Of a stretch of DNA of 64,000 nt, positions 1,225 to 64,000 are shown one piece after another (positions within the stretch are counted from its first letter, which is position 1; each line of letters starts with the position of its first letter). The DNA is from Bilabrum cf. latius. Lineage: Eukaryota. The notes beneath the pieces were generated by a model, which saw only the letters and a list, made by a program, of their open reading frames with translations, was not told the DNA's origin and ran no database searches. A program made the translations under genes and the position numbers. The stretch lies in NCBI GenBank assembly GCA_965178125.1, contig OZ237738.1, forward strand, positions 434,001 through 498,000, read 5' to 3'.

Positions 1225-1369
1225 CGTTTGTACAGGCTCTCTTTGTTTGCCGATGGCTTCTGCGCTCCGAACCTATTGTGGAACGTTCGTCGTTTTGCCG
1301 TTTCGTCAAACCGAAGACTTGACAATATTATTCGAGGTAGACACAATTTTCGATGAATTATTGAGAGTT

Positions 1370-31400: not shown

Positions 31401-31679
31401 ACTATTCAAGTTCTTCAACGCGACGCTACAGGCGTTCGTTGGAGTGGCTTATCTCTGCGAGACAAAGCGAGGCATGCATAGATCCACAAGGGCCACATTT
31501 CAAATCGTGTAAACACCATCGGTGTAGGAGGTCTACGGCTGACAAGCGTGTCTACAAGGTCAACATCTGGACGCACCTGCAGATTTCAATCTGGCTTCAG
31601 ACAGTGCTTTCTGCAAAAACTCCTCGTTCGTCGGTTGGTCTCCGTCATCATCATCGCCAAAGAGTCCCAAGAAACTCAT
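22402..31679 (-). CDS. Large Ala/Glu/Gln-rich coiled-coil protein with acidic low-complexity C-terminal third (~3,051 aa), 2 exons (31679-31577, 31454-22402)
   Basis: The major - strand ORF fragments (22402, 23269, 24859, 27073, 27682, 28477, 30556, 30973) share one frame linked only by TAG, including a tandem TAG TAG at 27421-27426. No in-frame TAA/TGA on a triplet scan. Heptad-rich composition; TGA stop. Confidence 0.8.
24761..24835. repeat. (GCACCA)n coding microsatellite encoding a Gly-Ala repeat in the coiled-coil gene
   Basis: Direct hexamer repeat with one imperfect unit; reads AGAGAG... on the - strand. Confidence 0.9.
31455..31576 (-). other. Spliceosomal intron (122 nt, phase 1) in the coiled-coil gene
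   Basis: GTGCGT...TCTCGCAG; contains TGA codons; removing it joins MSFLGLFGDDDD...KSA to EISHSNER in frame. Confidence 0.7.
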
Positions 31680-34458: not shown

Positions 34459-34599
34459 GCTGCACCCCGAGCAGATGTTGTTGTGTGCGTGATAATGAAA
34501 CAAAAATGAAGATAACTTGTGTGATGGTGACGTCCTTGCGACTGTATTTGGTTTCTCTTTGCCCGTCGTAAACGGCATTATTCCGGATTGTACATACAT

Positions 34600-37320
34600 T
34601 CACCTTGAAAACTGCCTCTTGTCCCCCTTCTCCCTGTGACCGTACGGGTTTTGAGCGCTGAACTTGTGGCCGGATTGCTTCAATCGCATCACAGCCGCCT
34701 TTGCCCGATCCCGCTTGGCCGGGTCTCCCACCCCACCACCACCACCCCTTCGCTTGATCTTGCCCGCCCCAGATGCGGCGCCTGGCACGACGGCATCCAG
34801 GTTCACCCGAGGAGGGACAGCGAACCCGAAGCCCTTGGCAACCTGCGGCAGGTCAAGCTCATTCACCTTGAAGATGTGCTTCAGCGAATGAGACGAGTAC
34901 GCCAGCAGGTAGGACCTGTAGGCATCCTTGGCAGACCTGTTGAGGTAGTAGTTGGATCCAATGAGCTTCTCCAGGTGGGGTCCTACCCTCGCTACCTTCT
35001 TGGCTGGCACCTCGAACTCGCTGAGGGTGACCCGCGCTGCCTTCAGGTAGCGCAGGAAGCCGAGCTCCTCCGGCAGCAAGAACAGCAGGGCCCGACCCTT
35101 GCCCTGGGCACCTCGCGCGGTACGACCCACTCGATGGATGTACTCCTTGGGGTCATCCGGGGGGTCGTACTGCACGATCCAATCCACGTAAGGGATGTCC
35201 AGGCCGCGGGCAGCAACGTCCGTGCACAGCAATATGCCACTCTTTCTGCTGTTGAACTCGAAGAACGTCGACGTGCGCCTCTGCTGCTTTTGCTTGCCAT
35301 GGATGCTCATCACTGGCACGTCGATGTAGTTGAGCAGCTCGGCGTGAAACTTGACGCTGTTGCAGGACGAGAGGAACACCATCACCTTTTTCTTCATCAT
35401 CTTCTTGAGGAAAGTGAACAGAAGCAAGAAGCGCTGCTCCGACGGACACACGATGTATCCTTGCTCAAGGGTGGAGACTGTGGCTTTCTGGTCGTCATCG
35501 TCGATACCGACGTACACGGGTTTCTGCTGGACGGCCAACCGGGCGATATCCTCTACCTTCTTGGTCTGCGTGGCACTAAAAAGGGCCGTCTGCCTGCTCT
35601 TCGGGAGCTTCTCGATGATTGCGCGGATCTCCTCCTCGAAGCCAATGTCGAGGATGCGGTCGGCCTCGTCCACGCACAGCACGAGCAGGTTCTTGACGTT
35701 GAAACCGCGAGTGTTGTTCAGGTGGTCTAGCAGGCGACCAGGCGTCGCGACAAGCAGGTTCACCCCCTTGACCAGGCGCTCCGCCTCTGTCCGTCGGTTG
35801 GCACCCCCGATCACCATGCCGTGAGTCAGGCCGAATCCGTCCAGGATCTGCCTGGCCGTCTCGTAGATCTAGATAGCCAGCTCGCGAGTCGGGGTGATAA
35901 TCACGGCACCTGTCCCGTTCCTTGCCTTGAACTTGGCCCGTGCCAGTAGCTCGATGGCTGGGATCAAGAAGGCCAGCGTCTTGCCGCTCCCTGTCTTGGC
36001 CGACCCCAGCACGTCGTTGCCGGACAGCAGATGAGGAATGGCGGCAGCCTGCACCTTAGTCATCGTCGCGAACCCAAGAGTCTTCAGCGCGGCCTGGGTC
36101 TTCTCCAAAAGAGGCAGCTCCGAGAAGCGCTGGTCGGAGAAGAAGCTCTTGTCCTGCATGGCGGCCTGCATCTTCTCCAGCTCCTCGCCAGTGGGGCCCT
36201 CGTCCTCCTCGGCTCGGGCGCGCTTCGACGAAGGCTCACCCGCCTCCCCACCATCTTCCCCATCCTCGGCCTCGCCGCCGAACCGCTCCCCTTCGTCTTC
36301 ACCGTCGTCGTCGCTCTCGCCGGCGTCTTCCCCCTCCGCCGCGACCGGCGCCTCAGTTGCGGCCTCGCTGCTCGGGGCAGCACCACCTGATGACTCATCG
36401 GAGGAAGTGGAGCGCCGTCTCTTCTTGCCGGCAATCGCCTCTTTCTCGTCTTCCAACTGCTTGGCATCATCGCTCCCCGCCCCAGAAGCTGGACCCCCCT
36501 CGGTTTCTGCTTTCTTGGCTAACTTTTCCTCTTTCTTGGCTTTCTTGTCCTTTTTGGATTTCTTCTCTTTCTTTGCTTTCTTAGCAGACTCTGCTTCCGC
36601 CTTCGCTTGCTTGCGAGCATCAAGAAGTCGCTTCTCGAGTGCATCTTCAGCCTCTGCAGCTGTCGACGCTGCAGCGGACGATGCAGATTGCTTGCTTGCC
36701 GCAGCTACCTCCGGCTTGCGAATTTCTCCACAATCGGCGATGGTGACCTTGCGTTTTGTAGTCCCTGATTCCGTTCCCATCCGCTCCAGCTGCTGCACAA
36801 CAGACTAACCAGCGATGACGCGGCCAAAAACTACGTGCTTGCCATTCAGCCAAGGCGTGGCGGCGGTAGTAATGAAGAACTGTGAGCCGTTCGTGTTCTT
36901 TCCAGCGTTCGCCATGCTCAGCAAGTAGGGTCGCGTGTGCTTCAGCCTGAAGTTCTCGTCACGAAATGTCCTCCCGAAAATGCTCTCGCCCCCCGTGCCG
37001 TTCCCTGCGGTGAAGTCACCGCCCTGGCACATGAATCCGGGAATGATGCGATGGAATTTGCTGCCCTTGTAGTGCAGCTGCTTTCCGAAACGGCCCCGGC
37101 CTTTCTCCCCAGTGCACAAACATCTGAAATTTTCGGCAGTCTTAGGGACAACGTCGCTGAACAGCTCGAACTCGATGCGACCGACCGACTTGCCGTTTGC
37201 AGCCATTTCGAAGAAGACTCTTGGTCGTTGGCTGTCGCCACCAGCCTGACTTCCAGGCGATCGCGACAAACTGCCAGGATGTTTTAGGTGCTTTGACGCC
37301 TTGGATTTATGTTTCGGCAT
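34600..37320 (-). CDS. Cyclophilin-type PPIase fused N-terminally to DDX18/Has1 DEAD-box RNA helicase, 906 aa
   Basis: Cyclophilin: [53 protein letters not shown]...VTIADCG. Lys/Glu-rich linker. Helicase: [50 protein letters not shown], and the Has1-type [11 protein letters not shown] tail. TAG at 36805 and 35869; TGA stop. Confidence 0.92.
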
Positions 37321-37441
37321 TTCTTAGACTCAAGCAAGACCGAAAAAAGTGAAAGGGAACATGCTCGCAGCCCCGAAGGTTCGTTATGGAGGTTCGCTGG
37401 AACCAAACAGCAACTGTTGAACTGAAGCATTCTTGCCTATC

Positions 37442-39391
37442 ATGAGCGAGAATCTGACAACATCTCCTGAGGTTGCGTTAGCACAGACAACAGAATCATC
37501 CTCTGGCGCCCCGCTATTGGAGGTAGAGGGCAGACAGCCAACGGACGAGGAGATTCTCGATGCGTACGAAGTAGAGCGTGTTGTCCGATTTGCTCGCGAT
37601 TGTGGGTGCAAGCGTTTGGCATTGTAGTTCCCAGACTGGATGTTAGTGCACTGTCCAGCAGTTGCAAGGCTTGTGTCTGACCGACTGCCAGAAGAAAGCA
37701 TAGCTTTTGTCCTCGGAGACACTTCATACGGAGCAGATTGCGTTGATGAGGTAGCAGCAAAGCACCTGGGAGCAGATGGCGTCGCTCACTTTGGACCAGC
37801 ATTCTCACACGCGACTTCATCGCTCCCAACACTGTTTGTGTTTGGCAGAGGCGACATCGATCCAGTTGCTACGGCCGATGCAATTGCGAGCCGAGTAGGC
37901 AAGCTCGACGTAAGCTTGCGACCTGGCAGCTCTGACGGAAAGAAAGACAAGCAAATGCTTGTGCTTCTTGCAGACTCATAGTACAATTCGGTTCTTGCTG
38001 CAACGTGTGCTTCGTTGCGAAACCATCCCGATATTGTTGGCGATAGCCGCGTCAGCTGGGACGTCTTGTCTGGCGAACAGGAAGCAGAATAGCTTGTTGA
38101 GCCATCTTCGAAAGCACCTGAAGCTGAAACAACCACAGGAGAAAGTTACAGTGCGTCAGGGTCGTCTGAAGCTGCTAGCAGGAGTGACGAGGGCGGGGAT
38201 GCTGCTGCTGCGACGGGACATGCCGGCAAGGTGCTGCAGCTCAATCTCGCTGGAGCCTCTGTCTCCTTACCGCCGTGGTGCACCGACTTGAGTTAGGTGC
38301 ACCTTGCGTACATTGGAGATCCAGGCCCGGGCGGCTGGGCGGCAGCGGGTCCAGGAAGCGGGTCCACGCGGCTGACCCAGGCCATGATGAGGCTTGGCTG
38401 CGGGGATGCGATCGTCTACTCGCCCAGGAAGAAGAAAGTGGCACCGGGCCCGGACATCCACCGCCAATTATCCCGCCGCTTCATGGCAGTCGAGCAGGCC
38501 AAAGTTGCAAAAACGGTGGGGATTGTTGTGGGCACCCTTGCAGCACGCCGCTTTCGCGATGTTCTGTGGGGCCTCAAACGGCTGGTGCGCGCCGCCGGCC
38601 GTGGGTGCTACACGTTCGTGATCGGAAAACTCAAGCCAGAGAAGCTTGCTAATTTCGGAGAGATTGATGTTTTCGTGCTGGTGGGGGCTGGTGACAGTGC
38701 TCTCGTGGATACCCGAGAGTTTCCGAAGCCTGTCGTGCTGCCGTACGAGGCAGTGCTTGCGTTCAACCCAGAGGTGGAATGGGATGGCAAAATCGTCCTC
38801 GACTTCGATGAGCTGGTCAAGTTCTTGCCACCGAAGCCGGAGCCTCTATCTGCGACAGATACTACTGCCACAGCTACCGGAGGTCTTGCTGCGAGCGCAG
38901 CAGCAGAGCCAGTGGTGTCCGACAGCACAGCGCCAGGTTCTGCAGGTGATAGCGCAAAGGGCCTGGGTGCTGGGTCAAGTACAGCCGGGATCGAGGACGA
39001 GGATGAGGAAGAGGATGACGACAAGCCGTTCTTCTCGCTGGTCACAGGCAAGTACGAATCGCGGGGATCTGCCAAGTCTGGCGGCCCGACCGTATGGGGT
39101 GGCAGCACGGCACTCACCGTGTCGGGAGCCGGTTAGGTTGCATTGCCGTCAGAGTACACGGGTGCCGGCCGCCTGGCGCAGCTGAACTGGCAGGGGATGG
39201 ACTATGAAGTTACCGAGGAAGCAGACACCAAGGTTCACAAGGGATGGCACGGGGTTGCAAGCGGTTTTGAGGGCGAAGGCGACGGGGAGCGCGGCGTGGA
39301 AGGCAGCGATCATGACAAGTCACGGACCGCCGGGGCAGCTGCAGAGCCAGGTGCCGCCAGCGGGGCTAGTGGCGGATAGGCAGGAACATGA
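37442..39391 (+). CDS. DPH2: Diphthamide biosynthesis protein DPH2, 649 aa
   Basis: YEVERVV, LAL(TAG 37625)FPD, LGDTSYGADCVDEVAAKH, GIVVGTL, GKLKPEKLANF.EIDVFVLV, FPKPVVLPYE and the Dph2-type C-terminal WQG...G..GVASGF. Six in-frame TAG; TGA 39389-39391. Confidence 0.85.
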
Positions 39392-39485
39392 ATCAGGTAT
39401 CCGCGTGATTTGATGCTACTGAAAGAAAACTACCTCTGTTTGAAGAACATGCAAAGCTTACCGTTTGGCTGCGCACTGCCACTAG

Positions 39486-42400
39486 TCACGTTTCATCACT
39501 GCCTCCCGACCCGAGCCTGGGGCTGGCCGCCAATGAGTGACTTTCCTTCGATGAAGAACTCTAATCCACATTAGATGACGTCTCTTCCGACTCGATGACG
39601 CTCGGCAGGGACGCTCTGCCGAGACCGAAGGCCGAGGCGATAGCGCTTCGCGCACGGTACCCTGGGACAGTGGGGGCTAGCGCCTTCGTGGCACCTGCTG
39701 CAATCTTCGGAGAGTCCTTGTTACGTCCACTGGAGTCTTTCTGCCCCACTTTGCTCCTCTACAGTTCTTGGGGGGCCGTTATCTCCTTCTGGAATTTGCC
39801 GGCCTCGTCCGTGCATCGAAGAAGCAGCAGTGAGGCCTTGTCTCTCTTGATCCGAGCCGCCTGCAGGTCCTCTCTGGCCATCTCCAATCGCATGCCGGGC
39901 TGCACGATCGCGCTATACCGACCAAGAAGCCTGTGCAAAGGGAATTGCACCAGCCTCCTCCGAATGAACACAGCTAGAGCCGCCATTGCGTTCAGCTCGT
40001 TTAGCTTCTTGTTGTATTTCTACCGGATCTTCTTGCTCGTGCGAGGTCTGCGCGCCCCTGCCCTTGGCTTCACCTGGCCCACGACTGCTTCGAGCCATGG
40101 CAGCTCCTTGCGAGGATCTTGCGGATGCGCTGCCTCCACAAGTCCACCAGTGTGGCACTCGATCACAGCAGATAGAGACACCTGTGGCGACGCAGACGAG
40201 CTGGCCTGGCCGACACCATCCGTGGCCATGCCAGAGGCGGCCTCATCACCGGATTGAGCAGATGTTGCTGTCGCTCTATGTACGGGTCCTGGTCCGCTTG
40301 CACTGCCAGGTCCATCGCCCGGACGGCCATCGCTGAGAATGCCTGCACCACTTGGATCAGCGAATGGATTGTCCGCGTTCCATCTGGTCCGAACCATCGC
40401 ACGGAGGCCGCCTGATGAAAACTTGGCCCGAGCTGACGTAGCGGTAAGCTGACTGGCCATCAACTCCGACTTTGCTGATGAAGTCGGCATTAGCCACGGA
40501 TGCACGGCCAGCACGCACGCATTGTACCGATTCTCTGCCTGCACCTCCAGCAAGCCGCGCAGCAGATCGATGCACTCTGGACTAAGCCCAGCAGGCAACA
40601 ATCGCCAGCTGATCTGGCCTCGTCGGGCTGCCCTATACTGCTCCTCCTTGGTCGAACCAGCAAACGGGATACGGCCGGACAGGAGGCAGAACAGCGTGAC
40701 ACCAAAGGACCAGTAGTCGCTGGCTGTCTGCCCCTGGTGCTTGAAGAGCTCGGGGGCCATGAAGAGAGGGGTACCCGCAATGCCGGCGACGAATGCATGC
40801 TACTCGCGATGCAAGTACCCCTTATGCGACATAACGGCACTGTTCACCTGTGATACACGGATGCTCTGGTCGCTTTGATTTGTGCCGCCTGCCTTGGCCC
40901 GCACGACTGCCTTGGCCCAGTCGGACACGGACTTGGATGGTTCTCTAGCGCTGGAATATGACAGTGCAGCCGTCTTGCTGCTGCTTGCCGTTGCCCCCGA
41001 TTGCGAGTGGGCTGCCCATGCTGTTGTGTTTGTCAGATACGAAGCACCTTGATCTGCCGGCTGGTGCAAGACTGCCCTTTGACTGGGCCCAAAACTAGTA
41101 TCATTAGAGGTGGAAATAGCCCTCTCTCCATCGATAGAGACGTTCAGCCGTCCTTGCACGGGTGTCATTGCGTTCCTTTCTGAGCTGAACTAGAAACGTG
41201 GTCCACTATCTGCAGCATGCTTGCTGCTTGCGACTGGTACTTCTCTGTCCATTACAAAGAAGTCGTCGTCGCCTCGCGACATATCGTCTGACAAGGAGAT
41301 TGCACTGCTATCGGCCTGGTCTGTCTCTTTGTTAAACCTCTTAGTTGTCCCTTGAAAGTCTGCACGTCTGATGCGTCGACTGGTGGCAGCTGCAGACCCG
41401 AGTCCCTTCGAGGACGTGCTCCGATGAGTGCTTTCAGGAGATCGGCCTGGTCCGGATCTCACGTAGCTTTCACTCAATTCGGCGATGGCGCGGCGGTCTG
41501 CACCGGCTTGATAATTTTTGACTCGGCTATTTTCGTCACGAATCCGGCTAGCCTAGACAGAAGAAGATTTTGAAATGATCGTACTGATGGCAATATGCAA
41601 GCGTGACTCTGCACAAATTGTCGCTTCGTCCGTTGCGAGCCTTGGCGACTGTGGTTGAGGCGACGAAAGTTGGATCTTAGAACCAAGATCCGGTCCAGAC
41701 GTAGCTGTCTAGGGTATTTCCTGGCTACTACAGCCATAGTCGGACTACCAAACCGTGCATGGTCGCATATCTAGGGGTTCTGATGCCCCTGCTCCGGAGT
41801 GTGGACTGCTGTCCGATGGTGGACTGCTGTCCTATGGAAGCTTCAAGTTGCTTGCTATAGAGCCCCAGTGCGACGACACGAGGTATACGCAGGGCTTTGG
41901 CCCGCAATGGGATGCACAAGCAACGCTGCTGATAGTTGGGCCTATCTCAGTCAGCTGACTTGCCTCCTGTTCAGACCGAGCCGATCTGCTAAGCACGCTC
42001 GACGCATTGGCTTTGCTGCGAAAGTTCTACGCTGCTGAAACGGCAGTCTTCACCCCACCCCTTGACTCTTGAACTGCCTTGCACAAAGACAGAAAGGCTC
42101 TATGTTCGAGTCTAGCAGTATCCGCCGCTACAATCCCAACTGCGCCAGCCCGTCGCGTCGAGTTCGGCCTCTCAGTCGACGCCGGTGACCGATCGCTGAT
42201 CCCAACTATGCTGCAGTAGAGGTTTGGCTCATGCAAAATCATGGACCTGGCTTCCTGTATCGATTTGGCCACAGTCACAACGACGTGCTGCGAGGCAGCT
42301 GCACCTCTCGATTCGATCATCTGCGTGACAGACTCCAGTGACTCGGCGGTCACTGAAGCATACATTGTGCCTGATCTGGTAGCATGGGTCGCGTTTCCCT

Positions 42401-45400
42401 GTCTCTGCCTCTTGCTAGTTGCCGGCATGGCCACAAGCAGCACACTACAAGGCAGCCCCAACTCACTGTCTGCATCCGGGGATAAATCGTTGGCCTGGGT
42501 AAACAACGGCAGCGGATGAGGGCGCTGCAATGGAGCGTATGAAGGCATCACCAGGTGCATGTCATCGTGACGGTCGATGGCAACCGTTCTCCAGGTATTC
42601 TTTGCCTGGTCTGATTGCGCAGCGCCTGTCTACTCCGTTGAAGTGCTGCCATCTGCTGATCTGCTGGCCGTCTGAAGTCCGAGCCCATCCTTGGATATGT
42701 CGACAGCGAGACCGAAGTCAACCAAGCAAACCCGTCCGGTGCCATCCAGTACAAGGTTGGAAGGCTTCACGTCGCGATGCAGCACTCCCGCAGAGTGCAA
42801 CTGCGAAAGAGAGCAAGCGACCTGCCGGCCCACTACCCGAGCCGCGCTCTCCGTCAGCCTCCACCGCCCTGGTCGTTCCCGCAGCAAGCTAGTCAGCGAC
42901 TTTCCCTCAAGCAGCTGCATCACCAGGCCAACCTCATCGTTGCCAATCACAACCCCTTCAAGGCGACACGCGCCTTCCACTCCATGCACAGCGCACCTCA
43001 TCAGTGCAAGCACCTCCCCGCGCACCACATCGGCCTTCAGCGATGCTCGCCGCCCGGAGTTTCCGGCTGAGTACGAGATGGACGAGTCGGGTCCGTGCCT
43101 CTTTTGCTCTGAGCGTGATCGCCGGCTGACCTTCAATGCGACCTTGCGGCGTGTCGGCAGATGCACGGCAAGGTAGACGCGCGCGAAGCCGCCCTCACCA
43201 ATGACCTTGAGTCGGACGTAGTCGAGCATGTGAGATCGAGGCAGGTCGAGCACATTCAGATCGTGCAAGCCTGAGGCATGAGGCTGGACCTTAGTGACTG
43301 GAACATCTCTGATATCTCCATTTTCGCTTGTGCCGTTCACAAAGACGGTCAGCAGCTTCCCGGAGCCTTGATCACTAGCGACCGCTGACATTGATATGAA
43401 CACGGTCTCACCCGTATCCACACGCAGGTGTCTGCTTGGCAGCAGCTTTGCCGTGCCTGGGTCACGTCCATCTGCGGCCAAGTCGTTGAGGCCTACCAAG
43501 CTCCATTCCCTCAGCCACTGGCGCAAATCTGCACCAGCGCCATGATGATATCTCCCACCGCTGGATCTGAGGCATTTCTCAAGCTATGACATCCAAGTCC
43601 TGTGCCAACTCGATGCAGCTCCAGCCTGTGGTTGCAACTCGCTCAACTCTCCATGCTTGAACTGCTCAACGACTCCGTCAGGACCAATGAGAGCCGAGCA
43701 TACGATCCATCTGCCTGAAGCTAGGAGTCCTTGCCGCTCCCTACTTGGCAGTTGGGCGTGTTCAATAAGAAGCGGCTGCCAGTCAACAACGCGAATGGTG
43801 TGCTTCCAATGGATCGCTGCCTCGCGAACGACGCTACTATTACCGGCCGCATGCGCCTCTACTACAGGTTGCGCGTCGCTAGAATTCGTTGCTTTTGCAT
43901 GCATTGGGTCGGCACCACTGGACTAAGTGTGACGCGTCCACTGGCGCCCCAGATACGGGGCCAAGACACTTTCGTTGAGAGACGGACTTGTTGCCAGCTA
44001 CTCGGTTGCCCCAATCATGGGCGTGCAATGAGCGTGTAAGTTCTTTGCTTGCAATGGCGATTTTGTGGACTTGGTACCCACCATGCTAGCTGCAATCTTC
44101 TCGCTTGCGAAGAAAGGTCTAGTCGTCCACTTTTTGCCTGTGTCTTCGTACAGAATCGTTGCAGGGCCAGAGCCAACCCAAGTCGCAACAGTCGGACCTG
44201 CTGCCGTGCCAATCGTTGGCTAAATGTGGATAGACAGCGCCTTAAGTACCTTGTGAACCTAGTAGAGCAAGCTGCATGCGGCAACAATGCTGCGTTCTGG
44301 TGCTGCAAACTTTCTACCCGTGAAGCTATTGGACACGGCTGGTATCGAGTTGGAGGGCGCAAGCAAACCCTCAGATACAGCAGCAGATTGGTCTCGGGGC
44401 ACGTGGCGTCCTTCATTTTCGTCACTCGCCGCCCGGGCATTCTTGTTGTTCGAAGCCTCAGTGTTGAACCATGCCACTCGGAACATCCCAGGCAGACTGC
44501 GCACTCGGATGGCCTCATACTTTGCACACACAGCATCGACTTCAGCACCAATCCGTCGATGAAGAGCCAGGGCAGCGACTGGCCCTGACAAGTCATTGAT
44601 TGCCTTATATCCACCAAGCACCAAAGTCACCACGATGGACCGACCGAGATCCACAGGACGATTCCGAAGTGCCAAGGTTGCAGAAACTTCGTGTTTCCTA
44701 TAGTTTTCATTGTTGGGCACCACCAGGCTACTAGCGCTAGACCAAACAACGTCTTGCCGCTACGAGCTGCTTGAGCTCGAGGCTCCAGCCGAAGGATTTG
44801 ATAGCGGTTCTGAGCTGCGCAGCAGGCCTTTGGACTCAACTTGCACTGCACCTGCTTGCTGCTGCCTCTTGAGCTCGCGCAGGTGCTGCAGGATCAGAGA
44901 CTTCGGCATCAGAGCCGAGGCAGCTGCAGCCAGCTAAGACCTAGTCTGCTTCAAAACCGCTGATGTGGTCTGGAGCAAAGCCTGCACAGTTGCCAAAGAG
45001 GACCCCAGTGTGCCTACCTGAACGAGCCGACCAGAAATCATGGCAAGCATGTAGATCGCACTGCCAGTTGCTGTTAACAGTGCCGTCCAGCTCTAGTTTG
45101 CTGAGTCAGCATCGATCTGCTCCTGCGACCACACACTAGCACATGCAGCTATTGCGTCCTCCCGCGGTCGCAAACCAGGCAAATTTCTCTGTAGTCCTAC
45201 GTAAGGGACGATCGGCATCAGCAGCGCTGCAACGATACCAACCGAAACTGTGCCTGCATTCACGCCATAGGTGCGAATGAGTCCAATCTACAGCTATATT
45301 GCCGCCAATATCGAGCCAGCGGTGGACACGCCGGGTTGTCTAGCGTGGCAAGATTCAGCAAAGGTCTCCAATGCAAACAGTGCATGCGTCGCTACGTGCG

Positions 45401-48400
45401 ACAACACTGCCGATGAGTACGCAACGAATGCAACTCGATCTGGCACAAAGGCTCCCTGAATGTGATACCAAAGACCAGCTATGACCATCCCGAGGCTAAT
45501 GAGAATCCTGGGTAGGTGAGCCATGAGCAGGCTAGCAGTGGATCCATCAGACCCCCAGGACATGTTGCCCGCAGTTACCTCCAAATTGGCAGCAATGAAC
45601 CAGTCTACCAGAGAGTTCTGTATGATGCTAGCTCCAAGCAAAGCCATGATCAGCGCCGAAATGAACGGTAAACCGTTCGTGTTCTCAATTGGAGTATCAT
45701 GGTCGTCTGTGTCTGCCTGACCGGGTACGAACATCTTGGTCACGTCGCCCAACTAACCAGGGAGAAATTCAGCCTATAGCTTGCCCCCATCATGACTACT
45801 ATGGTGAGCGTGAGATGTGGTGTTTTTTCCTGACAAATACCCTGAGCTGCTACCCATGACTGGGGCCAGCCAAGGCGGGATCGGCTCATTGCGTGCAGCG
45901 TCTAGCACAACTAGCCTCTTCGGTGATTTAGCATGGATTCCACCACACAGCTGATTGATTGCCTGGAGCAGCTTGGATGTGGTCAGCTCTACGCTCTACC
46001 GGCCTTCTCCAAGGGCGACGGTGCAGGGAACCAGAAGCTCGACTCCGACTGTCCTATCGGTGCTTGCGGCTCCTCTAGAGCTGCTAGAGTTAGAACGCGA
46101 GTGCATCTTGCCTGAATCAATAGGCTTGGAATGACTACGACGATTGGAAGAATCACCTGCGATTCTTCCCGATCCTGCAGTTGAAGGTAGCCGAGCACCG
46201 TCTTCGAGGGCGGTCTGACCCGCTTGGTTCCCTTCATGGCAGTCCACGGAATGTTGGAACCAAGCAATGAGAATGTCAAGCGCAGCCTTTATGGTCTGCA
46301 GCCCGGACAGGCTTGGGGCTTTGGCAACACGTGACGTTGACGTTGCTCTAGATCGGCTGCGGAGCCACCGAGCGCGGTCCCGCGGATCAATGGCGATTGC
46401 CAGTCTCCACTAAATACCAGCCTATACCGCGGAACTTATCATCTGCAGCACGTCAAGCAGTCGGTGCATGGTGTCTGGGGACATACGCACCGCGTGAACG
46501 ACGTTGCCGTCTACCCTGCCTGACGCACTAGAGAGAGATCTTGATTGGTGATGCTCATGAATCGTCGCCGCTTCTGCAGCCAGCTTGCGTGCCTACACGA
46601 GGCCTCCCCCAAAGGCAGACCATTCGTGCGGCTGCTGCTTCAAGCCAAGCAGGCCAACCACCATCGACACCTACGATGAATTCGGATATGAGATGCCACA
46701 GTCGAGTCGCATGCCGTGATTGTCTGCGGCAATGGCCCCGGCAGTGAACCTCCGAATGGAGGAGAAGCAAGCGAATGCAGCAGCAACGCGCTGCGTGCCG
46801 CGATCGATCGGCTTAATGGACCTCTAGGGCGTCCGCATGCCGGCTGCTCCGATCCACTGCGGCGTGACACCTTTGCCTCCTGCATGCTCGAGCTGCAGCT
46901 TGTCGATCGTGAGCTCTTTGGAGACTTCGCTCCACTTGACCTGGTTGAGCAAGAACAGTGATTTTCTCTGCGCTGTTGAAAGTACGCCCAGTGCCGCCGC
47001 CCCAATGGATGAGTCAGTTGAGCTGCTGATGGATGCGCTGTAGTACCTGCACAGAGCTAGGATGATCCCAGCCGTTGATGCCTGTGGTCCTGCGACCTTG
47101 GGCCGACCGCCGGGCGCACTGACGGCCGAATCCAAGCAGCGCGACAGGATTGCACCAGCCTATCGTAAAGACCGCGGCGGGAATTCCCCACATGACTCGT
47201 TTGAAGCGTCTCCTGCATCGGTGCTCTTGCGGACAATGGGCACTGTCTCGGCGCCGCCACCTAGAGGGTACGACCCTTGTGAACGAGATCCGGCGACTAG
47301 GCTCGCGCGCACTGCCATCACAATGGGTTTCGCCTCGAACGCCATCACACCAGCTGCCATGCACTCCTAAGCAAAGGGCGGCACCTGGTTTCGAACTGCA
47401 CTGACGACAACCTGCTGCTGCTGCTACGCCTGCACGACGGTTCGCCGCAGCCGCTCTGCGGCAGTAGAGCCTCGGTACCTCAGGTACTCCTACTCTATCG
47501 CCAGCATGGCTCCAAACGCAAGTGGAAGCGTCAAAAGGTACACAGACAGCTCCAGAAGGGAGCCAATTCCATTCAAGCCCAATGGGCTGAAGAAATCGTA
47601 CCGATGCTCCTCGTCGAGAACATCAATGTCGGCCGTCCCGAATGGGTAGCTGGGCCCTGCCACGCTCACGGCGATGAAAATCGCGGCGAGGCAAATAAAG
47701 TACACCCATGCGTACGACAGAAACGTCCAAAAGGCCCGATCAACATCATACGGGGCCGTGATTGGCCATGAAATCAGCATCAGAATGGCTACTGGGACAC
47801 CACGACCAGGGCTGATCACCAGGTCGAGAGAAGTAGAAAATACGGCAAGCATTACAATTGTTAACACTGGAGCTGCTGCACCTGCAGCAAGCTCGAGACC
47901 TCGCGATGCTGTTGCTCGCAAACGCCAAGAAGCGTGGGGAGACGAGCCCGTGCGGTCGCAATGAGTCAATCCGCTGGAGGGAGGCGGAGCATCGTTGGGC
48001 GCACCTATCTCGGGCTCATTTGACAGACCATCAGCGGTCTCTTGCTGCTGCTGATCTGCTGCCCCAGCATCAAGCGAGGATTCGAGGTCCTCCAAATCGC
48101 TGAACTCCGAGTCGGCTGCCGAAAAGGGACCATCTTCGTCTGTGCGAATGGCTGATACACGCCCTCCTCTGCTAAGTGCCATACAACAAGTCGATTGGAG
48201 ACAACGCTGACAATCAAAGAAGCTGGAGCAGCAGGCTCGGGAAAACCCCCCAGCACCCGATATGGCGCGATCCAAGTCAGCTTCAACAACTGCGACCATA
48301 TCATGATGAGGTGCTGGTGCAGGCCCAGCTGTTTCTCGTGTCTAGGACTGGTGCGTCTTGCGAGTCATCTCGTCAGCATGCTCTCTCTAGCCTTCTTCAC

Positions 48401-49019
48401 CACATTCAGGATCATTTGGGGTGTCTGCGTGGACGCTCACAGCCGGCCTACTTCTGGACTAACCACAGCTGCAGCGTCTGGCCCGACAGGACAGTCCAGA
48501 TAAAACAACCAGGCAAGCCTTTGAAAGTAAGATGGCTCGAAGCGCAGATTGTCTGGTATTATTCCCACAAGCGCCGTGCAAATCGAAGCAACCGTGATGA
48601 CGGCACCACTTCCCTTCGGCAGCACCTGATCTCGATCGACCGGACAACCCATCAAACGCTGGGCGCTCACCACGATAACGAAGTTTAGGCTCTTTAAGCG
48701 CATTCTTCGGATCTCTAGACGAAGCAGGGCGAGAGGGTTGGCGAACACTCTTATCGAGCTGCGCAACTGAGGCAGGCGCAGTGCTTCTGATGGCTTGAGC
48801 CCACAACCTCATCAACCAAGCAGTGCCGATCAAAGAAATAATAAATGTTATACATACAAATGCTACTGGAATTGACTATCCCGCTTGCCGAGACGTTGCA
48901 ACGGGAGCATCCCCATTCGCAGATGATCGAGGATTCGTAGCTAGATTTGCAATCATGATAAATGCAAACATGCTTACAAACACTCCACACATGCATGTCA
49001 AACAATTAATCGTTGGCAT
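39486..49019 (-). CDS. Multi-pass membrane protein with two degenerate class III nucleotidyl-cyclase-like domains fused to a C-terminal AGC-like Ser/Thr kinase with a ~640-aa activation-segment insert (~3,177 aa)
   Basis: Single frame from ATG 49019 to TGA 39486, broken only by TAG. Kinase: IGEGGFARVY, VALK, HRDVKPSN, DFGLA (~43220-42700), then GTPLFMAPE, DYWSFG, HPWL (~40780-40490). Hydrophobic clusters at ~49000-47500 and ~45700-44990. The kinase call is strong; the cyclase-like call is motif inference. Confidence 0.75.
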
Positions 49020-49241
49020 ATCCCAATTTCAATAGTAGGCTCGGTTGTCAGCCTGAAGAGATAGACTAGCCGAAGGGCTAGCGAGGTTCCGTTCGCCACG
49101 TCACAGGGTGGTCGCAAAATTGGAGAGCCGCGCAATCTGTGGAACCGATAGTTGGTCGCAGGTTTCGAGGCTCAACTAGAGAACTAGGCCACACGGCATT
49201 AGCCTAAACAAATAAGAGAGAAGCTATCATGCTCAATTCAC

Positions 49242-52200
49242 TCATGATACGCCCGAAGCGCCCCCACCATGAGATTGCTTCTTGGCAGCCGCTGCTTGCT
49301 GCTGCTTCTTCTTTGCGAGCAGCTTCGCTGCCCCAGTCTGCCTTCGTCTCCCAGCACCCCCACCTCCAGTCCTGTACCGCGAACCCGACTGCCTCCCTGC
49401 GCGACCACCCGTGGACCAGGCAGACCCGCTCCCACTCGATGGAGCCGTGGTGTCAGCCGTACCAGCGCTCGACGGAGTGCGCGACGCTACTGTAGACGCA
49501 GCGGCATCCGACGAGTCTTCACGAACCCCTACCCGCTCACCGCCCGCCCCGACCCCCGCAGCACCCTGCTGAGACGGCGGCCTAGTTCCGGTCCTAGTTT
49601 TCCACTTGCCGGAACCCCCAGATCCCAGCACCGCAGTACCACCAGGGCTAGTACTACCACCACTCCTCGGACTACTCTGTGCCCCACCCAAGCGGGAGCC
49701 GGCATCGAGATCAACACCACCCCCCTGTAGCAAAGCTCGCATGGCGGCGTGGTCTCCTCTCACCGGTGCCCCCGCCTTTCCAGCCGCAGCACCGGCGCGC
49801 GATACCGGCAGCCGACTGGCAGCTCCCTCCGTCACAGCCCCGTGAGCATCCAGGCCAGGCGGCTTGCTGCCGGCCACTGCGCGCGGCCGGGCCCCATTCA
49901 TGTTCTGTCTAGACTTTGCGGACCGCAACAAAGCTAGAGTGCGCTTGGAAGGCCCCTTTGCCCTCGCTGAGCCCGCGCTGCCTTCGCCTTGGCCAGAGCC
50001 GCTGCCATCTCCACCACTGGGTGATGATGATGGCGTTGACGATGATGGCGTTGACGACGCTGATGATGATGGTGGCACCTGGGCGCTCGAGGCAACCTGT
50101 GAAGCGGCGGGCAAGGCGTTGCCCCCGCCGGTCCCCTTGCCTCCTTTACCCTTGGGCGTATGTGGCGGCGAGGCAGACTGCGGGGGCTGTGCCGCTGCGT
50201 CCGTGGACCCGCCAGCAGCTCCGTGCGCCTGCTTGCTTGCAGCCTTCATGGATGCGCCCCGCCCCGACCGTGCCCTCTGCAGCTCCTTGCGGCGGCGCCG
50301 CCTAGCCGACTGCGACTTGCTGGCCAACGCCCCCGCGCTCGCGGCCGAGACGCCCCTCCCTACCGTGATGGTGCGAGGTGCCACCCGGCTGGGAGCCACG
50401 AGAGCACGCACCTCACCTTGGCACGGGCGAAGCACCACCACAGCCCCTGTGGCGGCGTGCACTAGTACACTCTCCTGCCGCTAAAACTCCGCGGAGAGGG
50501 CCTGGGGCGACGCGCCTGGCCTGCTGGACAGGGGGGGAAGTGGGTTCACGAGACTGGACCACAGCGCGCTTGAGTCCGACGCACTCAGCGCGAGGACCTG
50601 CAGGTCGCTGCCCGCAGAAGCCGCGATACACACGGCGCTACCCCCGGCGATCCATTCCATGCTAGCCTCGCTCCAGCCGCCCCTGCGCTCAACGCGGGCT
50701 AGGGCGGATTTCGCGTGCCTGGCCTCATTGGTGCTGGGCGGGGCCGCGTCCTGCTGTCCTGAAGGCCTGCTGGCGAGCTCCACGAACGGGCCGACCGCAA
50801 CCGCCACCGCCTGGACCCCTGCCACGCCGGCGGTGGGCGACAGCTTCAGGGTTGCGACCAGTATGGCCGGAAAAGTCTCTCCGGTGGTGCTGCTCTTGCC
50901 CTTGATCGGACTGCCGATCATGTTCACGGCAATGCTTGCAGACCACGCAATCACAGCCGCGCTGCTCGCGGGGCTCGGCAACACGCCAAGGCACCGATGG
51001 AAGGAAATGTCTGACACCTCAAGGCCATCCGACTGTCCAGCCGCGAGATAACCGTGTGCCTGCGCGGCTCTGCTGGCAGCCTCCAATGCGGCCTTCTCGT
51101 ACGCAGAGCTAGGTAGCGGCCAAAGTTTAGAGGGCAGCGGCCTGCGGGCAGGCTTCGAGCTAGCCGCGGCAGCGCCCGCCGACTCGGTGCGAAGAAGCAG
51201 TGCGGCAGCTCCCGAGAAGGTGCTCGAAGACGTGCCAGGAGCCAGCTCGACAGGACCGGTGCAGGTACCCACCAGCACGCTGGGCCACGAGCTGGCGCCC
51301 GCACACGCTTCGGCAACGGCGGCAGCGTCTGCCCTTGCAACGACACTCTTAGGAACCGCCCCTCCTGCGTCCACCATCGCCTGTACTCGAAGTTGGAGCT
51401 TTGGTGGAGCCGCATCCGAGCCACCTTCACCGGTTGCAGCTTCCGGCTTCACGATGGCTGCCTTGCCACTGGGGAACACAACGACAAGGCCGGGCATACC
51501 GTCGGGAGAATACTTCTCTCCCAGGCTGTAGTCTGCGTTGAGCAAGCACATCGAAGGAGTGTAAGGCTCATCCTCGCCGTCGACTGGGATCGATATCGTG
51601 ATTCCAGAGGTGGCTCTCCACTCCTGAGCGCCTGCCTCGTCGGATGCAGCCGCATTCGGGGCCTTGGATCCCGTCGGCTGTGCCTTTGTGGGTGCAGCTA
51701 GCCACATGGCCAGCTGCATGGATGGTGCAACCGCAGTACCCGCATCTGACGGCCGCAGCAGCGCCCACACCGCGATACCTCCCCTCCCGACACTCTCTCC
51801 CAACTGTTCCATCGACACGCGGGCAGCAGCGGTACTCGCATCGATCACGGCCGCTACAGCCGCATGGGAAGGCAGTCCGGTGCCACCACTGCTGCCACCC
51901 TCAGTAGCCATCGACCGAGGTGCGGCCTCATCGTGAGGCAGCCTCAGATTGACCTGGGCCGCCCGCGCGTCACTGGTTGGGCTGGGTGCACCACTACCTG
52001 TTGACAGCAGCACCGATCGGGAGAATCTACGGAGAGTTAGAACGCTGGATGCAGGAGCGGGTGCCGACGACGCGGAAGAAGTAGAGACACGAGGAATCGT
52101 CTGTGCATGCGAAGCTGGGACCACCACGGCCATAGGCAAGCCCGGATGCAAGCACAAAGCCTTTCCAGCTCCTGCAGCATCCGCTTCAGCGCCATCCGAC

Positions 52201-53389
52201 CCGCTGACATCGTCCATGGAGTGCACAGGGGCCGGTTTCCAAGCGACCTCGTCGTTGCTGGCAATGGCCGCCACTGGGCGCAGCTGGCTTCCGGCACCAG
52301 CGCCAGCCTTTGCTTTGACCTGGGACCCAGCGGTTGTTGCAGGGGCATCGCTTTTGAAAGAAGACCCCTTGTCGATTTCCGATCCAAGCCTCGTTGTCTG
52401 CTGGTCTGTGACGGCGCTGCCCGCCCCGTCGCCTGCCGCACCCTCTGTCATGGGCTTGTTGGTCTTCGCCTTCTCAGGGGAGACTGCCTGTGCTTGCGGG
52501 GCGGCTTCAGGTGCGGCCAACTAATTGGGAACAGGGGGTGTTTCATTCTATTCGGCATTCTCGCCTTCCGCGCTGCTGCCAGGGTTGGCAGGGATGGATT
52601 GCCCAGTCGGGCCGGAGGCAGGTGCCCCATCAGCAGGGCCCGCGCCACCACCCGCACCGCTGCTTGGCCCGGTTTCTGCAGAACTTGGATTGGTTTCCTA
52701 TGCGGGGTCTCTGCGGCTGCCGTCTTTGCCGGTTTGAATCTCGCCGACTCCAGCGAGAAGCCGAACCAAGCGCTCCAAGGCCGCTGCCTCAACTCCAAAG
52801 CTTGCACTTTGCAGTGCCCTGTGCGCCGAGACGAACGTGCGCTTCAGCGAAGCGTTTGGATACGGTCGTTCACGCGATTCCTGTGGATCTGATGCCAGCG
52901 CAACGATTCGAGAGCCAGCAACGCTTGCAGCTTCGACAAGCAGCTTCGTGAGGCGTTCTAGAGACTGCGATCATTTCAGAGGTGCAAGAAGGCTACCATG
53001 CAGAATCTGACCCCAATTTAACACACCAGTAGGGACATTTACTATGTCATGCTTACGTTGACCTTTGCCGATTCAGATCGGAGCTTCGCCTCGATGACAG
53101 CCGTTTCAGCTTTCGCTGCAGCGGCCTTGTGCTCAGCATGGTGCAGATCTGAGGCAGACGCCAGTTCAGAAGCCTTAGCAGATAATGCAATCAGCATGGG
53201 AGTGATAGGAAGCGAAGAAGATGTAGCTTGAGCGGAGACTGCGCCTCCAGCCGCGGATCCATCGGCGTCCGATGACAAATCAGACAGAAGTCTATCCAAA
53301 ACCGAACTAGATCTTGAGTGGCGCCGAGTCCCAGTACTATGACTATCAAGTTCTTGCGCAAATCCTTCTCTGGAACCTTTGGACGACAT
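49242..53389 (-). CDS. Ala/Gly/Ser-rich protein of unknown function (~1,351 aa), 2 exons (53389-53057, 52964-49242)
   Basis: ORF fragments 49242 and 50481 share a frame joined by TAG, and the frame extends to 52964. A GT-AG intron links it to an exon starting MSSKGSREGF. No family recognised. Confidence 0.65.
52965..53056 (-). other. Spliceosomal intron (92 nt, phase 0)
   Basis: GTAAGC...ATCGCAG, AT-rich, reconciles the two frames (SAKVN|SLERLTK). Confidence 0.72.
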
Positions 53390-53543
53390 GGTGAATGCTG
53401 CACGAGTGTTTCTAATTGTGCAGTTGTCGAATGTAACGAGCCAATCTCGTTTAAAAACCGCACGAAACGGACGTGAGTCAGCGCTCAGCTCCTGGATGCA
53501 GCCTTGCAGCACCGAGATCGGCACAAATCAAAAAGAACATTGC

Positions 53544-54926
53544 ATGGGCTGCGGGAGCAGTCGCGTTGGGCTTCGAGACGCGTTCAGCGGAGTAGAGCAG
53601 GAGGAATTGCTTCTGAAGTATGGAGAGCTGCAGCATTCCCTACATTTGGAGGACAAAGAGATGCTTGACATGTACAAAATATTTGCTATGTTTGATGACA
53701 ATCGGACAGGCGTGCTCTGCTAGTCGGACTGGCTTGCGCTCTTCGACTTGGAGCGGTCTCCGCTGACCGAGAGACTTTTTCGCATGTTTGCTGGTGGTGC
53801 CGAGGATGGCGTCAGCTTCAAGTACTACCTGTTTAGCACTTGGACGTTTTGCACCCAAAACACTGCATCGTTGACTTCGTTTGCGTTTCAGATGTATGAT
53901 AGCCGCAACAGGGGTATTCTTGGGGCGGCCGACGTCATGGCAATGATGAAGGATCTGTTCGGCGTGCAGTATGAGGACAACCCCATCGCCCAGCAGATCA
54001 TGCGGAAGTTGCTAGATAAGAATGTTAAAGGCGAGCGAACCACAGGAGGGGTGACCCAGGCGATGTTTGCTCAGCTTGCTAGCTCTGCCAAGAATCTTCT
54101 GTACCGGCCGTTCCAGGTGTAGCACCACATGCAGGACCAGGTGCTAGGCAGGGCGTTCTGGGCAAAGAAAGCCAGGTAGAGGTATGACATGCAGGCAGAC
54201 GGCAGGTTTGACCTGAGCGCAGTCGTTGAAATCATGAATCGCGGCAAGGCAAAGTCCCGGCACCTGACCGTTCTGCAAGGCGTGGTCGTTCCACTCCGGA
54301 CGGCTGCCGGGACGCAGGAATCCGAAGCAGAGGCGCAGCAAGCAGCTCGCCAGAAAAATTTCATGCTACAAATGGATGAGGACAGCAGAGAAATGGTGAA
54401 GAAGGCCTCCTCGGCGAAGATGAGGCAGAGTCCGGCGAGGCGCTCGCCCCACCGATCGGCCAGCAGCCAGGCTCCGTACGACAGCTAGCACGAAGGAACT
54501 CTCCAGACCGGGAGCAACCTTAGACCAGCAAAAGTGCCGGCACATCCGAGCAGTGCAGGGTGGAGCGCGGTCGTGGGCGGCAGCTCGGACTCGACGATGC
54601 GCTCGTCCCTGGGTGGCGGCGGCCAGGCGCTCCCCAGCGGGGTGGCCATGCCGAGGTCCATGTCGATGCAAGTCGGACGCCATGCCAGGACCGCCGCTGG
54701 TCACGCCGACCTCGAGTAGAAGATATCTGCAGGTCTCCCGCGCTCTGCATCGAGCTCCTTCACGGAACGTCTTCTCGCGTCGCCAGGAAGGGGAGCAGGG
54801 GCAGGGGCAGGAGCAGGCAGGCACGTCTCTGCAGCCGCCCGAGAGAGGATGGACCGTAACCCGGCCACTAAAGTGAATCACAGAGCTTCCGCCATGCGGA
54901 GAGCCCAGCAAGGATTCCGAGGATGA
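53544..54926 (+). CDS. Calcineurin-B/CHP-like EF-hand calcium-binding protein with MGCGSS N-acylation motif and disordered tail, 460 aa
   Basis: MGCGSSR (myristoylation/palmitoylation-type N-terminus); EF loops FDDNRTGVLC and FAFQMYDSRNRGIL; LLYRPFQV(TAG 54120)HHMQDQVLGRAFW resembles the P.F.LQ....LG..FW tail of this group. Five in-frame TAG; TGA 54924-54926. Confidence 0.75.
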
Positions 54927-63300: not shown

Positions 63301-64000
63301 TGCTGCACCCGTGTGCCCGATCGTGCTGGACGACCCTCTCTGCGTGGAAAAGACGTATCCCGAGTTCTGGGACCACCTGGAGACCATCCTCGGCGTGGAC
63401 GTCTCGGCAGCCGATGCAGGCGCGCTGTCCCCAGGTAGTGTCGCGGAGGTCCTGCACGCCAGGCTCGCGGGGACGCAGGGTTCTCGAACCGGCGGCTCCA
63501 CCCAGCCTGCTGCCCCGGGCCTGGCGGATCTTGCACCGAGGAATCTGCTGCAAGCGAAGCCGCGACAGCTGATCAACGCCTCCCTCGCACGACCCTTCAT
63601 GTCTGCGGTAGTCATTGGGATGCGGGGCGCGGGAAAATCGACACTCGCCCGAGCTGCAGCCGCTGGCCTGGGGCGCCCGTGGCGGCACATCGACCTGGAC
63701 GAGGTCCTCGTGAACGAGGAAGGCCGCACGGTCCAAGAAATCGTCGCGGAAGTAGGCTGGCCTGGGTTCAGGGCGAAGGAGGTCGACGTGCTTCTGGACT
63801 GCCTCTCCAGCGATGACCTATCCCAGCATTGCGTCATCTCGTGCGGCGGCGGAATCGTCGAGTCGCCCGTTGCGCGAGCTCTCCTCAGGGCGTACGCGCA
63901 GGGCGGTGCCGCGTCAGTGCGAAAGCTGGGGATCGAGTCGGGCTTGGTTCGGAAGAGTGCGGACGGCTCCGCGGCCTCGATCATCGCGAGCATGGATCCG
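60366..64000 (+). CDS. ARO1: AROM multifunctional shikimate-pathway protein, 5' part (DHQ synthase, EPSP synthase, start of shikimate kinase); runs off the window. Exons 60366-60476 and 60569->64000
   Basis: DHQ synthase: GGGVVGDLAGF, PTTLLAVVDSSIGGKT, LNFGHTIGH, LHGECVA. EPSP synthase: PGSKSISNR, NAGTASRF, SSQYVSS, RVKECNR, DDHRVAM, KTYPEFW. Shikimate kinase: IGMRGAGKST. Missing from the ORF track because no stop occurs before the window end. Confidence 0.95.
60477..60568 (+). other. Spliceosomal intron (92 nt, phase 0) in AROM
   Basis: GTGCGT...TTGCGCAG; joins ...LLGRLAQ to EIKNVVP...VVISDENV in frame. Confidence 0.8.

Follow-up and report, generated by a model that had tools for sequence, protein, structure and literature searches.

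A putative receptor-like Ser/Thr kinase joined to a probable two-bundle, catalytically degenerate class III cyclase scaffold in Bilabrum cf. latius

Results

Reading frame and genetic code

The minus strand of a 64,000 bp stretch of Bilabrum cf. latius DNA (GenBank assembly GCA_965178125.1, contig OZ237738.1, positions 434,001 to 498,000; this whole stretch is referred to as the window and position 1 is its first letter) contains, between positions 49019 and 39486, one open frame of 3,177 codons in which TAG is read as Gln 37 times and neither TAA nor TGA interrupts the sequence. The gene (39486..49019) ends with TGA, encodes a single protein of 3,177 amino acids and is colinear with RNA-like contigs covering 39420-47552 and 47621-49045; it and all its features described below lie on the (-) strand. 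From the N-terminus the predicted protein consists of a membrane bundle, a cyclase-like segment (C1), a second bundle, a second cyclase-like segment (C2) and a protein kinase. We interpret it, with confidence evenly divided between belief and doubt, as a receptor-like Ser/Thr kinase whose front half derives from a membrane class III cyclase with two bundles (6+6 helices) and relays a membrane signal. A similar combination had been proposed in an earlier reading made from the letters of the window and their open frames (the sequence-only reading), and the motifs quoted there all fall within this one frame at or near the sites given for them, with the first C1 motif at 47396-47373, upstream of the range originally named.

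The remaining two minus-strand frames between 48000 and 40001 contain 13-20 TAA and TGA codons per 2 kb. The GC content of the window is 54-66%, compared to ~70% in Cafeteria roenbergensis, whose genome paper names a non-standard code for its mitochondria only (PMC6972860). One alternative sees the long frame as an artefact created by the assignment of TAG to Gln, with its parts being separate genes or a pseudogene, and the point in its favour is that Gln stands opposite TAG in just 13 of 47 cases in homologous protein fragments. Ordinary Gln codons (CAA/CAG) score likewise low against the same fragments (33 of 84), and Gln is still the commonest residue opposite TAG. In the aminotransferase domain of a neighbouring gene, TAG codons 1019 and 1031 have Gln opposite them in both of the best PDB matches, while the other four of the six TAG sites do not. 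Furthermore, all 12 long frames counted in the window hold TAG, with TGA as terminal codon in 11 and TAA in one, and every TAG is unaltered in the RNA-like contig described below, all of which makes the artefact extremely improbable and already largely refuted.

The nuclear code in the window thus appears to use TAG for Gln with TAA apparently still a stop, as TAG is frequent and TAA absent in frames as long as 4,550 codons. Reassignment of TAG only, with TAA kept as stop, is rare among eukaryotes.

Transcript evidence

Four sequencing runs were aligned to positions 34400-53400 of the window, and statements about contigs refer to those listed. Run X1 contains the whole stretch as a single piece of uniform depth and may represent the source DNA. 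The contigs of run X5 stop at gene borders (34564-37317, 37444-39430, 39420-47552 and 47621-49045) with depths from 10 to 110, and both X5 and run X6, which comes from a different study, skip exactly a 92-base intron at 52965-53056. X5 and X6 were read as RNA because of the gene-bounded contigs, the uneven depth and the skipped intron.

The X5 contig of 8,133 bases (39420-47552) aligns with the window with no differences and no gaps and covers the last helix of bundle 1, C1, bundle 2, C2, the entire kinase and the stop. Since this contig is identical and gap-free, the kinase is not transcribed apart, there is no intron in this part and TAG is not edited. The proposed joining of the kinase to the cyclase-like segments is therefore borne out by a single frame and a single RNA-like contig, and no separate kinase transcript was seen.

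Against reading X5 as RNA stands its program label, 'RNA? (probably DNA)'. Among the runs listed in the run search as carrying this DNA, none is recorded as RNA. Positions 47553-47620 are found in no listed RNA-like contig and leave the 5' end of bundle 1 unbridged. The first 466 codons are joined to the rest by the open frame and by a homolog, P0136, that runs across 47553-47620.

This gap is situated within a conserved coding loop, and a GT-AG pair in frame lies at almost the same place (47621-47550). An intron of 72 bases between these two sites was considered as its cause and rejected; the GT-AG pair is present, but no listed contig has the corresponding joint and the segment is conserved in P0136, and 47621-47550 was judged to be coding.

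Membrane bundles and linkers

Hydropathy places helices at residues 6-24 and 52-70, four within residues 385-506 and six within residues 1115-1330. The latter two groups correspond to the two membrane clusters seen earlier in the sequence-only reading, which omitted the N-terminal pair. This pair (48810..49004), assigned by hydropathy and charge counts and with a predicted topology, probably represents helices 1 and 2 of the first six-helix bundle, and is followed by a basic, mostly low-complexity loop of ~310 amino acids. The four helices that would complete bundle 1 (47502..47867) are conserved in the homologs P0136 and P0143.

Directly past bundle 1 lies a long helix with a conserved motif (residues 507-560, 47340..47501), at the position of the signalling helix of class III cyclases, although its similarity to that helix is not significant. 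In the predicted structure the first 40 model residues of this helix reach a predicted local distance difference test (pLDDT) score of 69-86, and residues 511-575 show 52% identity across four homologs. The linker between C1 and bundle 2 (residues 861-1114, 45678..46439) is partly conserved, with 39% identity across four homolog fragments and no family match. Bundle 2 (residues 1115-1330, 45030..45677) was defined by homolog-averaged hydropathy, and its N-glycosylation sequons at residues 1152 and 1308 both fall in loops predicted to be on the outer side. It is followed by a helical segment (residues 1331-1385, 44865..45029), 78% identical to homolog P0122, whose position suggests that it is the equivalent of a second signalling helix. 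Between C2 and the kinase a linker of ~280 amino acids (43227..44069) matched no known family in family searches.

A topology of 12 helices in two six-helix bundles is weakly supported by basic stretches after helices 2, 6 and 12 and by the placement of the sequons on the predicted outer side; an extra hydrophobic stretch, residues 160-178, was left out of this 6+6 count by judgement.

The C2 domain

The C2 segment (residues 1456-1650, 44070..44654) contains a variable insertion at residues 1519-1573 and was modelled from 12 sequences with a core pLDDT above 90. When this model was searched with Foldseek, all 37 rows listed were class III cyclases, the best being 1azs_A (E 2.5e-5), and 72 matches had E<=0.001. 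Comparison with 48,161 chains using VIA gave class III cyclases at ranks 1-7 with Z 10.7-11.7, including 1cs4_A (Z 11.7, root-mean-square deviation 4.5, 148 residues aligned), followed by a GGDEF chain with Z 10.7 and 121 residues aligned as against 146-150 for the best class III rows. VIA alone separates the two folds narrowly. A GGDEF diguanylate cyclase was rejected as an identity for C2, as fewer residues were aligned in VIA, none appeared in the listed Foldseek rows and the loop between strands 2 and 3 lacks the signature.

Independently of the model, a cyclase profile was built from bacterial class IIIa domains (77 extracted, 126 loci; 70 retained at <80% identity) and compared with the C2 family using hhalign, giving 89% probability and P 2e-6. 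The C2 alignment score was reached by none of 150 shuffles in each of two shuffle schemes. Conversely, the C2 family profile ranked the 77 cyclases over 1,222 decoys with an area under the curve (AUC) of 0.98, and the top 20 were all cyclases. When seven cyclase blocks were slid along all 3,177 residues, three ranked first within C2. Searches of the PDB gave no match with the single C2 sequence, and with the C2 profile the top match was the guanylyl cyclase 3et6_A at E 0.72, which is not significant. Strands 1-3 of C2 show 49% identity over 11 homolog rows and the C2 insert 16%. By model and profiles, C2 has a class III cyclase fold, and its resemblance to cyclase blocks noted in the sequence-only reading goes beyond chance.

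The C1 domain

The segment after bundle 1 (C1, residues 561-860, 46440..47339), with an insertion near its start, is likely to be a degenerate class III cyclase domain, an estimate drawn from marginal profile tests and from where it lies, past a membrane bundle and a long helix. Alignment of C1 with the class IIIa profile in hhalign covered 52 columns (P 0.03-0.04) and followed the register helix 2 - strand 3 - helix 3, and an alignment with a long-insert state extended this to 84 collinear pairs through strand 5. Under the two schemes, 3 and 4 of 150 shuffles matched the C1 score, compared to at least 12 of 150 for each of seven control regions. In the block slide two blocks ranked first in C1 (at residues 720 and 844), with further C1 sites at 800 and 683 ranking 4 and 6, all in order.

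A number of results pull the other way. The p value of 0.02-0.03 for C1 fails correction for the nine regions scored, though the site had been named beforehand, and the signalling-helix block ranked at neither of its expected sites. The reverse ranking was weak, with an AUC of 0.64 compared to 0.38-0.53 for five control regions. The C1 model has a mean pLDDT of 45 and no fold match, C1 gave no Pfam match in a segment search at E<=10 and its profiles matched nothing in the PDB, and the C1 profile showed no similarity to that of C2. Of the cyclase fold once proposed for both segments, C2 thus stands by Foldseek and profile, and C1 is weakly supported, in the right register and lacking a fold match.

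Catalytic residues

The catalytic set of class III cyclases comprises two metal-binding Asp, an Asn and an Arg on helix 4, a triphosphate-binding Arg and a base-reading pair (PMC2576301). Registers for these sites were taken from alignments at ~10-16% identity. In C2 the metal-Asp sites correspond to Val1467 and Pro1510; the first Asp is missing in all 11 C2 rows that cover the site, and in three of 12 rows (P0128, P0150 and P0135) an Asp is found one place off the second. In C1 the second site is Pro720, while the first is ambiguous (residue 570 or ~657) and not Asp in either register. The Asn and Arg sites of C1 are Val808 and Lys812, with Asn in none and Arg in one of three homolog rows, and helix 1638-1646 of C2, a low-confidence part of the model, has neither residue in the window protein. 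The triphosphate Arg is replaced by Thr1602 in C2 and Asp773 in C1. A base-specifying pair (Lys/Asp or Glu/Cys) is absent; its C1 sites are Gln709 and Ser801, variable in homologs, and the C2 site is variable. Across 25 homolog fragments the family is diverged and the catalytic residues are not conserved. As aligned, both halves of the window protein lack the metal-binding Asp and the Asn/Arg pair, as the sequence-only reading had stated, and are predicted not to be of the active-cyclase type.

A cleft without catalysis could still serve as a small-molecule sensor, in which C1/C2 bind a nucleotide or other cytosolic ligand and control the kinase allosterically. The fold appears retained, the VIA matches include 6yii_A, by its title a class III cyclase-like ATP-binding protein, and forskolin uses the dead second site of the mammalian enzymes (PMC2576301). 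Such a sensor is nevertheless quite improbable, given that the metal Asp, triphosphate Arg and base-reading residues are absent or variable across the homolog rows.

The kinase

The C-terminal part matches Pfam Pkinase at E 7e-40, in agreement with the kinase reported earlier, and is divided into two stretches, residues 1932-2103 and 2749-2843, by an insert that the sequence-only reading overlooked. The first stretch (42711..43226) extends from the N-lobe to DFG and contains the Gly loop, Lys1963 (beta-3), Glu2002 (helix C), HRD at 2081-2083, Asn2088 and DFG at 2101-2103. The second, the remainder of the C-lobe (40491..40775), contains APE at 2755-2757, Asp2768 (subdomain IX) and Arg2831 (subdomain XI). 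With the eukaryotic Ser/Thr kinase motifs complete, the kinase is, by its motifs, catalytically complete. The nearest kinase sequences in the PDB are MELK, RSK and CAMKK1, placing it closest to CAMK/AGC. Pfam searches on the whole protein found kinase families only and no ATPase domain, those on nine segments of it gave no relevant match at E<=10, and a word-based search with the N-terminal half of the kinase gave 147 matches, of which the 120 listed were generic and mostly of bacterial type.

The insert in the activation segment, from DFG to the P+1 loop (40776..42710), is Ser-rich, 645 residues long and without a family match, and makes the segment ~625 residues longer than in the aligned PDB kinases. 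Inserts of several hundred residues between DFG and the P+1 loop occur in the Greatwall/MASTL and Rim15 kinases, which unlike the window protein are soluble and have no cyclase scaffold. Residues 2190-2390 of the insert contain alternating strand-like and helix-like segments which by eye resemble a receiver domain. This identity is not supported, since Pfam gave no match there at E<=10 and a profile of 27 receiver sequences did not match. The C-terminal tail (residues 2844-3177, 39489..40490) is of low complexity with a basic helical stretch and gave no match in the family search.

Homologs

Residues 500-1690, used as query for HMMER against 1.84 billion representatives, matched 25 proteins at E<=0.001. 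Each of these is a fragment (66-407 amino acids, 29-69% identity), and together they extend over bundle 1, C1, the linker, bundle 2 and C2; ten that were looked up come from Logan, JGI or ENA. Pfam found no Guanylate_cyc match in any of the 25 at E<=1. Of the fragments aligned up to their last residue, four (P0129, P0131, P0133 and P0139) terminate immediately ahead of a Gln in the window protein and thereby give a hint of a shared code, and the homolog fragments suggest that a whole lineage reads TAG as Gln. Runs X1 and X7 contain further contigs that resemble the C1 motifs but differ from them at ~10 of 58 bases, which is consistent with paralogs.

Other searches were negative within their scope. 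Word-based searches found no match to residues 370-1700 among proteins of 1747-5560 amino acids and none to the C1 alignment among proteins of 714-2035 amino acids. In a metagenome scan the C2 sequence gave 483 candidates and the conserved C1 motif no matches, and viral contigs gave 12 candidates, with no candidate confirmed in either case. A look-up of P0125 in a sequence atlas returned nothing at 0.9, which is uninformative. The search for the same architecture thus brought out a paralog family that the sequence-only reading had overlooked and 25 scaffold fragments, none of them reaching the kinase.

These data bear on the idea of a passive scaffold, where the cyclase body merely anchors or oligomerises the kinase at the membrane, regulation takes place via the insert and the fusion may be specific to this paralog. 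The kinase linkage is seen in this gene only, and the family is fast-evolving (29-69% identity) and rich in low-complexity inserts, which speaks for such a scaffold. Conservation is higher in the segment past bundle 1 (52%) and the C2 core (49%) than in the membrane helices (36%) and the inserts (16-30%), which suggests a retained mechanical role, and one contig of a source-like run carries both kinase-like and C1-like stretches (joint 40780-46620), its short side of 21 bases being below the level of trust. Overall a passive scaffold is rather unlikely.

Neighbouring genes

The upstream neighbour (~53388-49242) contains the 92-base GT-AG intron (52965-53056, (-)) and has no Pfam match. Downstream, a diphthamide-synthesis gene (DPH2-like) lies tail-to-tail with the cyclase-kinase gene (39391-39486), and the RNA-like contigs of the two overlap by 11 bases. 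A 906-amino acid frame at 34600-37320 (-) encodes a fusion of a cyclophilin and a DEAD-box helicase of HAS1/SPB4 type and is covered by single RNA-like contigs in X5 and X6. Two further multi-enzyme genes were found; one at 14959-18450 (-) joins prephenate dehydratase, prephenate/arogenate dehydrogenase and a class I aminotransferase, the last close to plant prephenate aminotransferase, and the other is of AROM type (dehydroquinate synthase, EPSP synthase and shikimate kinase), lies at 60677-64000 (+), leaves the window and has no TAG in 1,107 codons. The window also contains a MORN-repeat protein (31870-34458, (+)), a GH18 chitinase-family protein (18567-19721, (+)), an EF-hand protein (53388-54926, (+)) and two very long frames without a Pfam match, of 4,550 amino acids at 1253-14905 (+) and 3,054 amino acids at 22402-31566 (-), the latter of which looks rich in coiled coil. 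The diphthamide-synthesis, helicase and AROM-type neighbours together with the GT-AG intron mark the DNA as eukaryotic.

Discussion

In the preferred interpretation, that of a receptor-like kinase fed by a former membrane cyclase, both cyclase halves would have lost catalysis and kept their fold and membrane-linking helices, and probably also their pairing. A stimulus received by the membrane bundles would displace both signalling helices together with the C1/C2 pair, in the same movement as activates true cyclases. The attached kinase would thereby be released or restrained, and the long insert in its activation segment would be an added regulatory or docking surface. Pairing of C1 with C2, ligand sensing and coupling to the kinase are steps that we infer. 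Cyclase activation has been described as one domain rotating on the other (PMC2576301), and six-helix anchors are capable of direct control over a class IIIa cyclase and can be exchanged with the anchors of His-kinase receptors (PMC4821796). For a dead yet conserved pair that lies between anchors of this kind and an intact kinase, a mechanical relay would be the simplest use.

Several of the findings tell against this interpretation: the helix number is based on hydropathy alone, ~280 residues separate C2 from the kinase, none of the 25 homolog fragments reaches the kinase, and P0146, the sole fragment that extends past C2, has no significant match to the linker between C2 and the kinase (E 0.3). 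Regarding the dead cyclase scaffold on a receptor-like kinase put forward in the sequence-only reading, the C2 fold, the loss of catalytic residues in both halves and the single frame have held, while C1 is the weak part.

Another explanation would be a dominant-negative role, where the dead domains pair with and damp active cyclases of the cell and phosphorylation by the kinase falls on the partner or on targets close by. The scaffold would then be a docking device with no internal relay. RDK1 of T. brucei is said, in a preprint, to have a dead cyclase domain and to be a cyclase inhibitor. Active sites of cyclases form between two domains, so that a dead domain can poison its partner (PMC2576301), and proteins of the order membrane-cyclase-kinase with a partial Pfam cyclase match are reported from three trypanosomatids (PMC10463195). 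With two halves on one chain, mutual pairing of C1 and C2 is simplest, as in the mammalian enzymes (PMC4821796), and a dominant-negative protein seems unlikely here.

When comparing the receptor-like kinase proposed here with known systems, the mammalian-type membrane adenylyl cyclases (TM1-C1-TM2-C2, where TM is a transmembrane bundle; 1azs, 1cs4, 6r3q) share the order of parts, probably the 6+6 helices and the C2 fold, with 7-16% identity in structural alignments, whereas the window protein lacks catalytic residues in both halves and has large inserts and a kinase after C2. Animal receptor guanylyl cyclases (GUCY2/RGC) likewise combine a kinase fold and a class III cyclase in one membrane protein, but have one helix with the kinase-homology domain first and the cyclase last, the reverse of the order in the window protein with its ~12 helices. 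In these animal receptors the kinase is dead and the cyclase active.

The trypanosomatid proteins CAJ03763, EAN77619 and ESS66660 resemble the window protein in having helices, a partial cyclase match (~110-125 amino acids) and a C-terminal kinase, and differ in that their helices number two and their cyclase domain is single (PMC10463195). For the membrane kinase RDK1 of T. brucei a STE11-like domain at the C-terminus has been described, without mention of a cyclase (PMC3894213), in contrast to the CAMK/AGC-like kinase of the window protein. Receptor cyclases of Acanthamoeba and giant viruses also carry a cyclase and a Ser/Thr kinase in one membrane protein and form an expanded family (67 genes), but have one helix, a large outer receptor domain and the cyclase between two kinases (PMC4053784); the window protein has one kinase only, in two stretches, and not the order kinase-cyclase-kinase. 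Alveolate guanylyl cyclases, as presented in a Stentor preprint (10.1101/168187), are protist membrane proteins with two cyclase domains and a foreign module, which is an N-terminal P-type ATPase, a domain that the window protein does not have. The membrane kinases reported from Phytophthora, with one to nine helices, all belong to TKL (PMC3019232).

An arrangement of two bundles and two cyclases ahead of a kinase appeared in none of 150 of the 273 cyclase places in a membrane-kinase table covering 128 species (PMC10463195), a Pfam-based survey that would be blind to so degenerate a domain and has some protists outside the part examined. A limited literature search gave no description of a two-bundle, doubly dead cyclase-kinase form or of a 'pseudocyclase'. 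The architecture had been called unfamiliar; fusions of cyclase and kinase in membrane proteins, including the order membrane-cyclase-kinase in trypanosomatids, are already known, and within these limited searches the new part is the two-bundle form that is dead in both halves.

A wider and tentative possibility, which we regard as more doubtful than probable, is that the lineage has turned a 12-helix adenylyl cyclase chassis into an expanded family of receptor kinases, in which the bundles would sense ligands, the dead C1/C2 pair would serve purely as a mechanical transducer and the output would be phosphorylation instead of cyclic nucleotide. Domain surveys of membrane kinases would miss such proteins, which have no Pfam cyclase match and, with TAG encoding Gln, are broken into fragments by standard gene calling. 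For membrane adenylyl cyclases it is not yet settled whether the six-helix anchors act as receptors themselves (PMC4821796), and a family that kept the anchors, the signalling helices and the fold but lost catalysis and acquired a kinase would separate the role of transducer from that of enzyme and offer a direct readout. If true, these proteins would add a new class to the eukaryotic receptor kinases and would themselves be natural evidence for a receptor role of cyclase membrane anchors.

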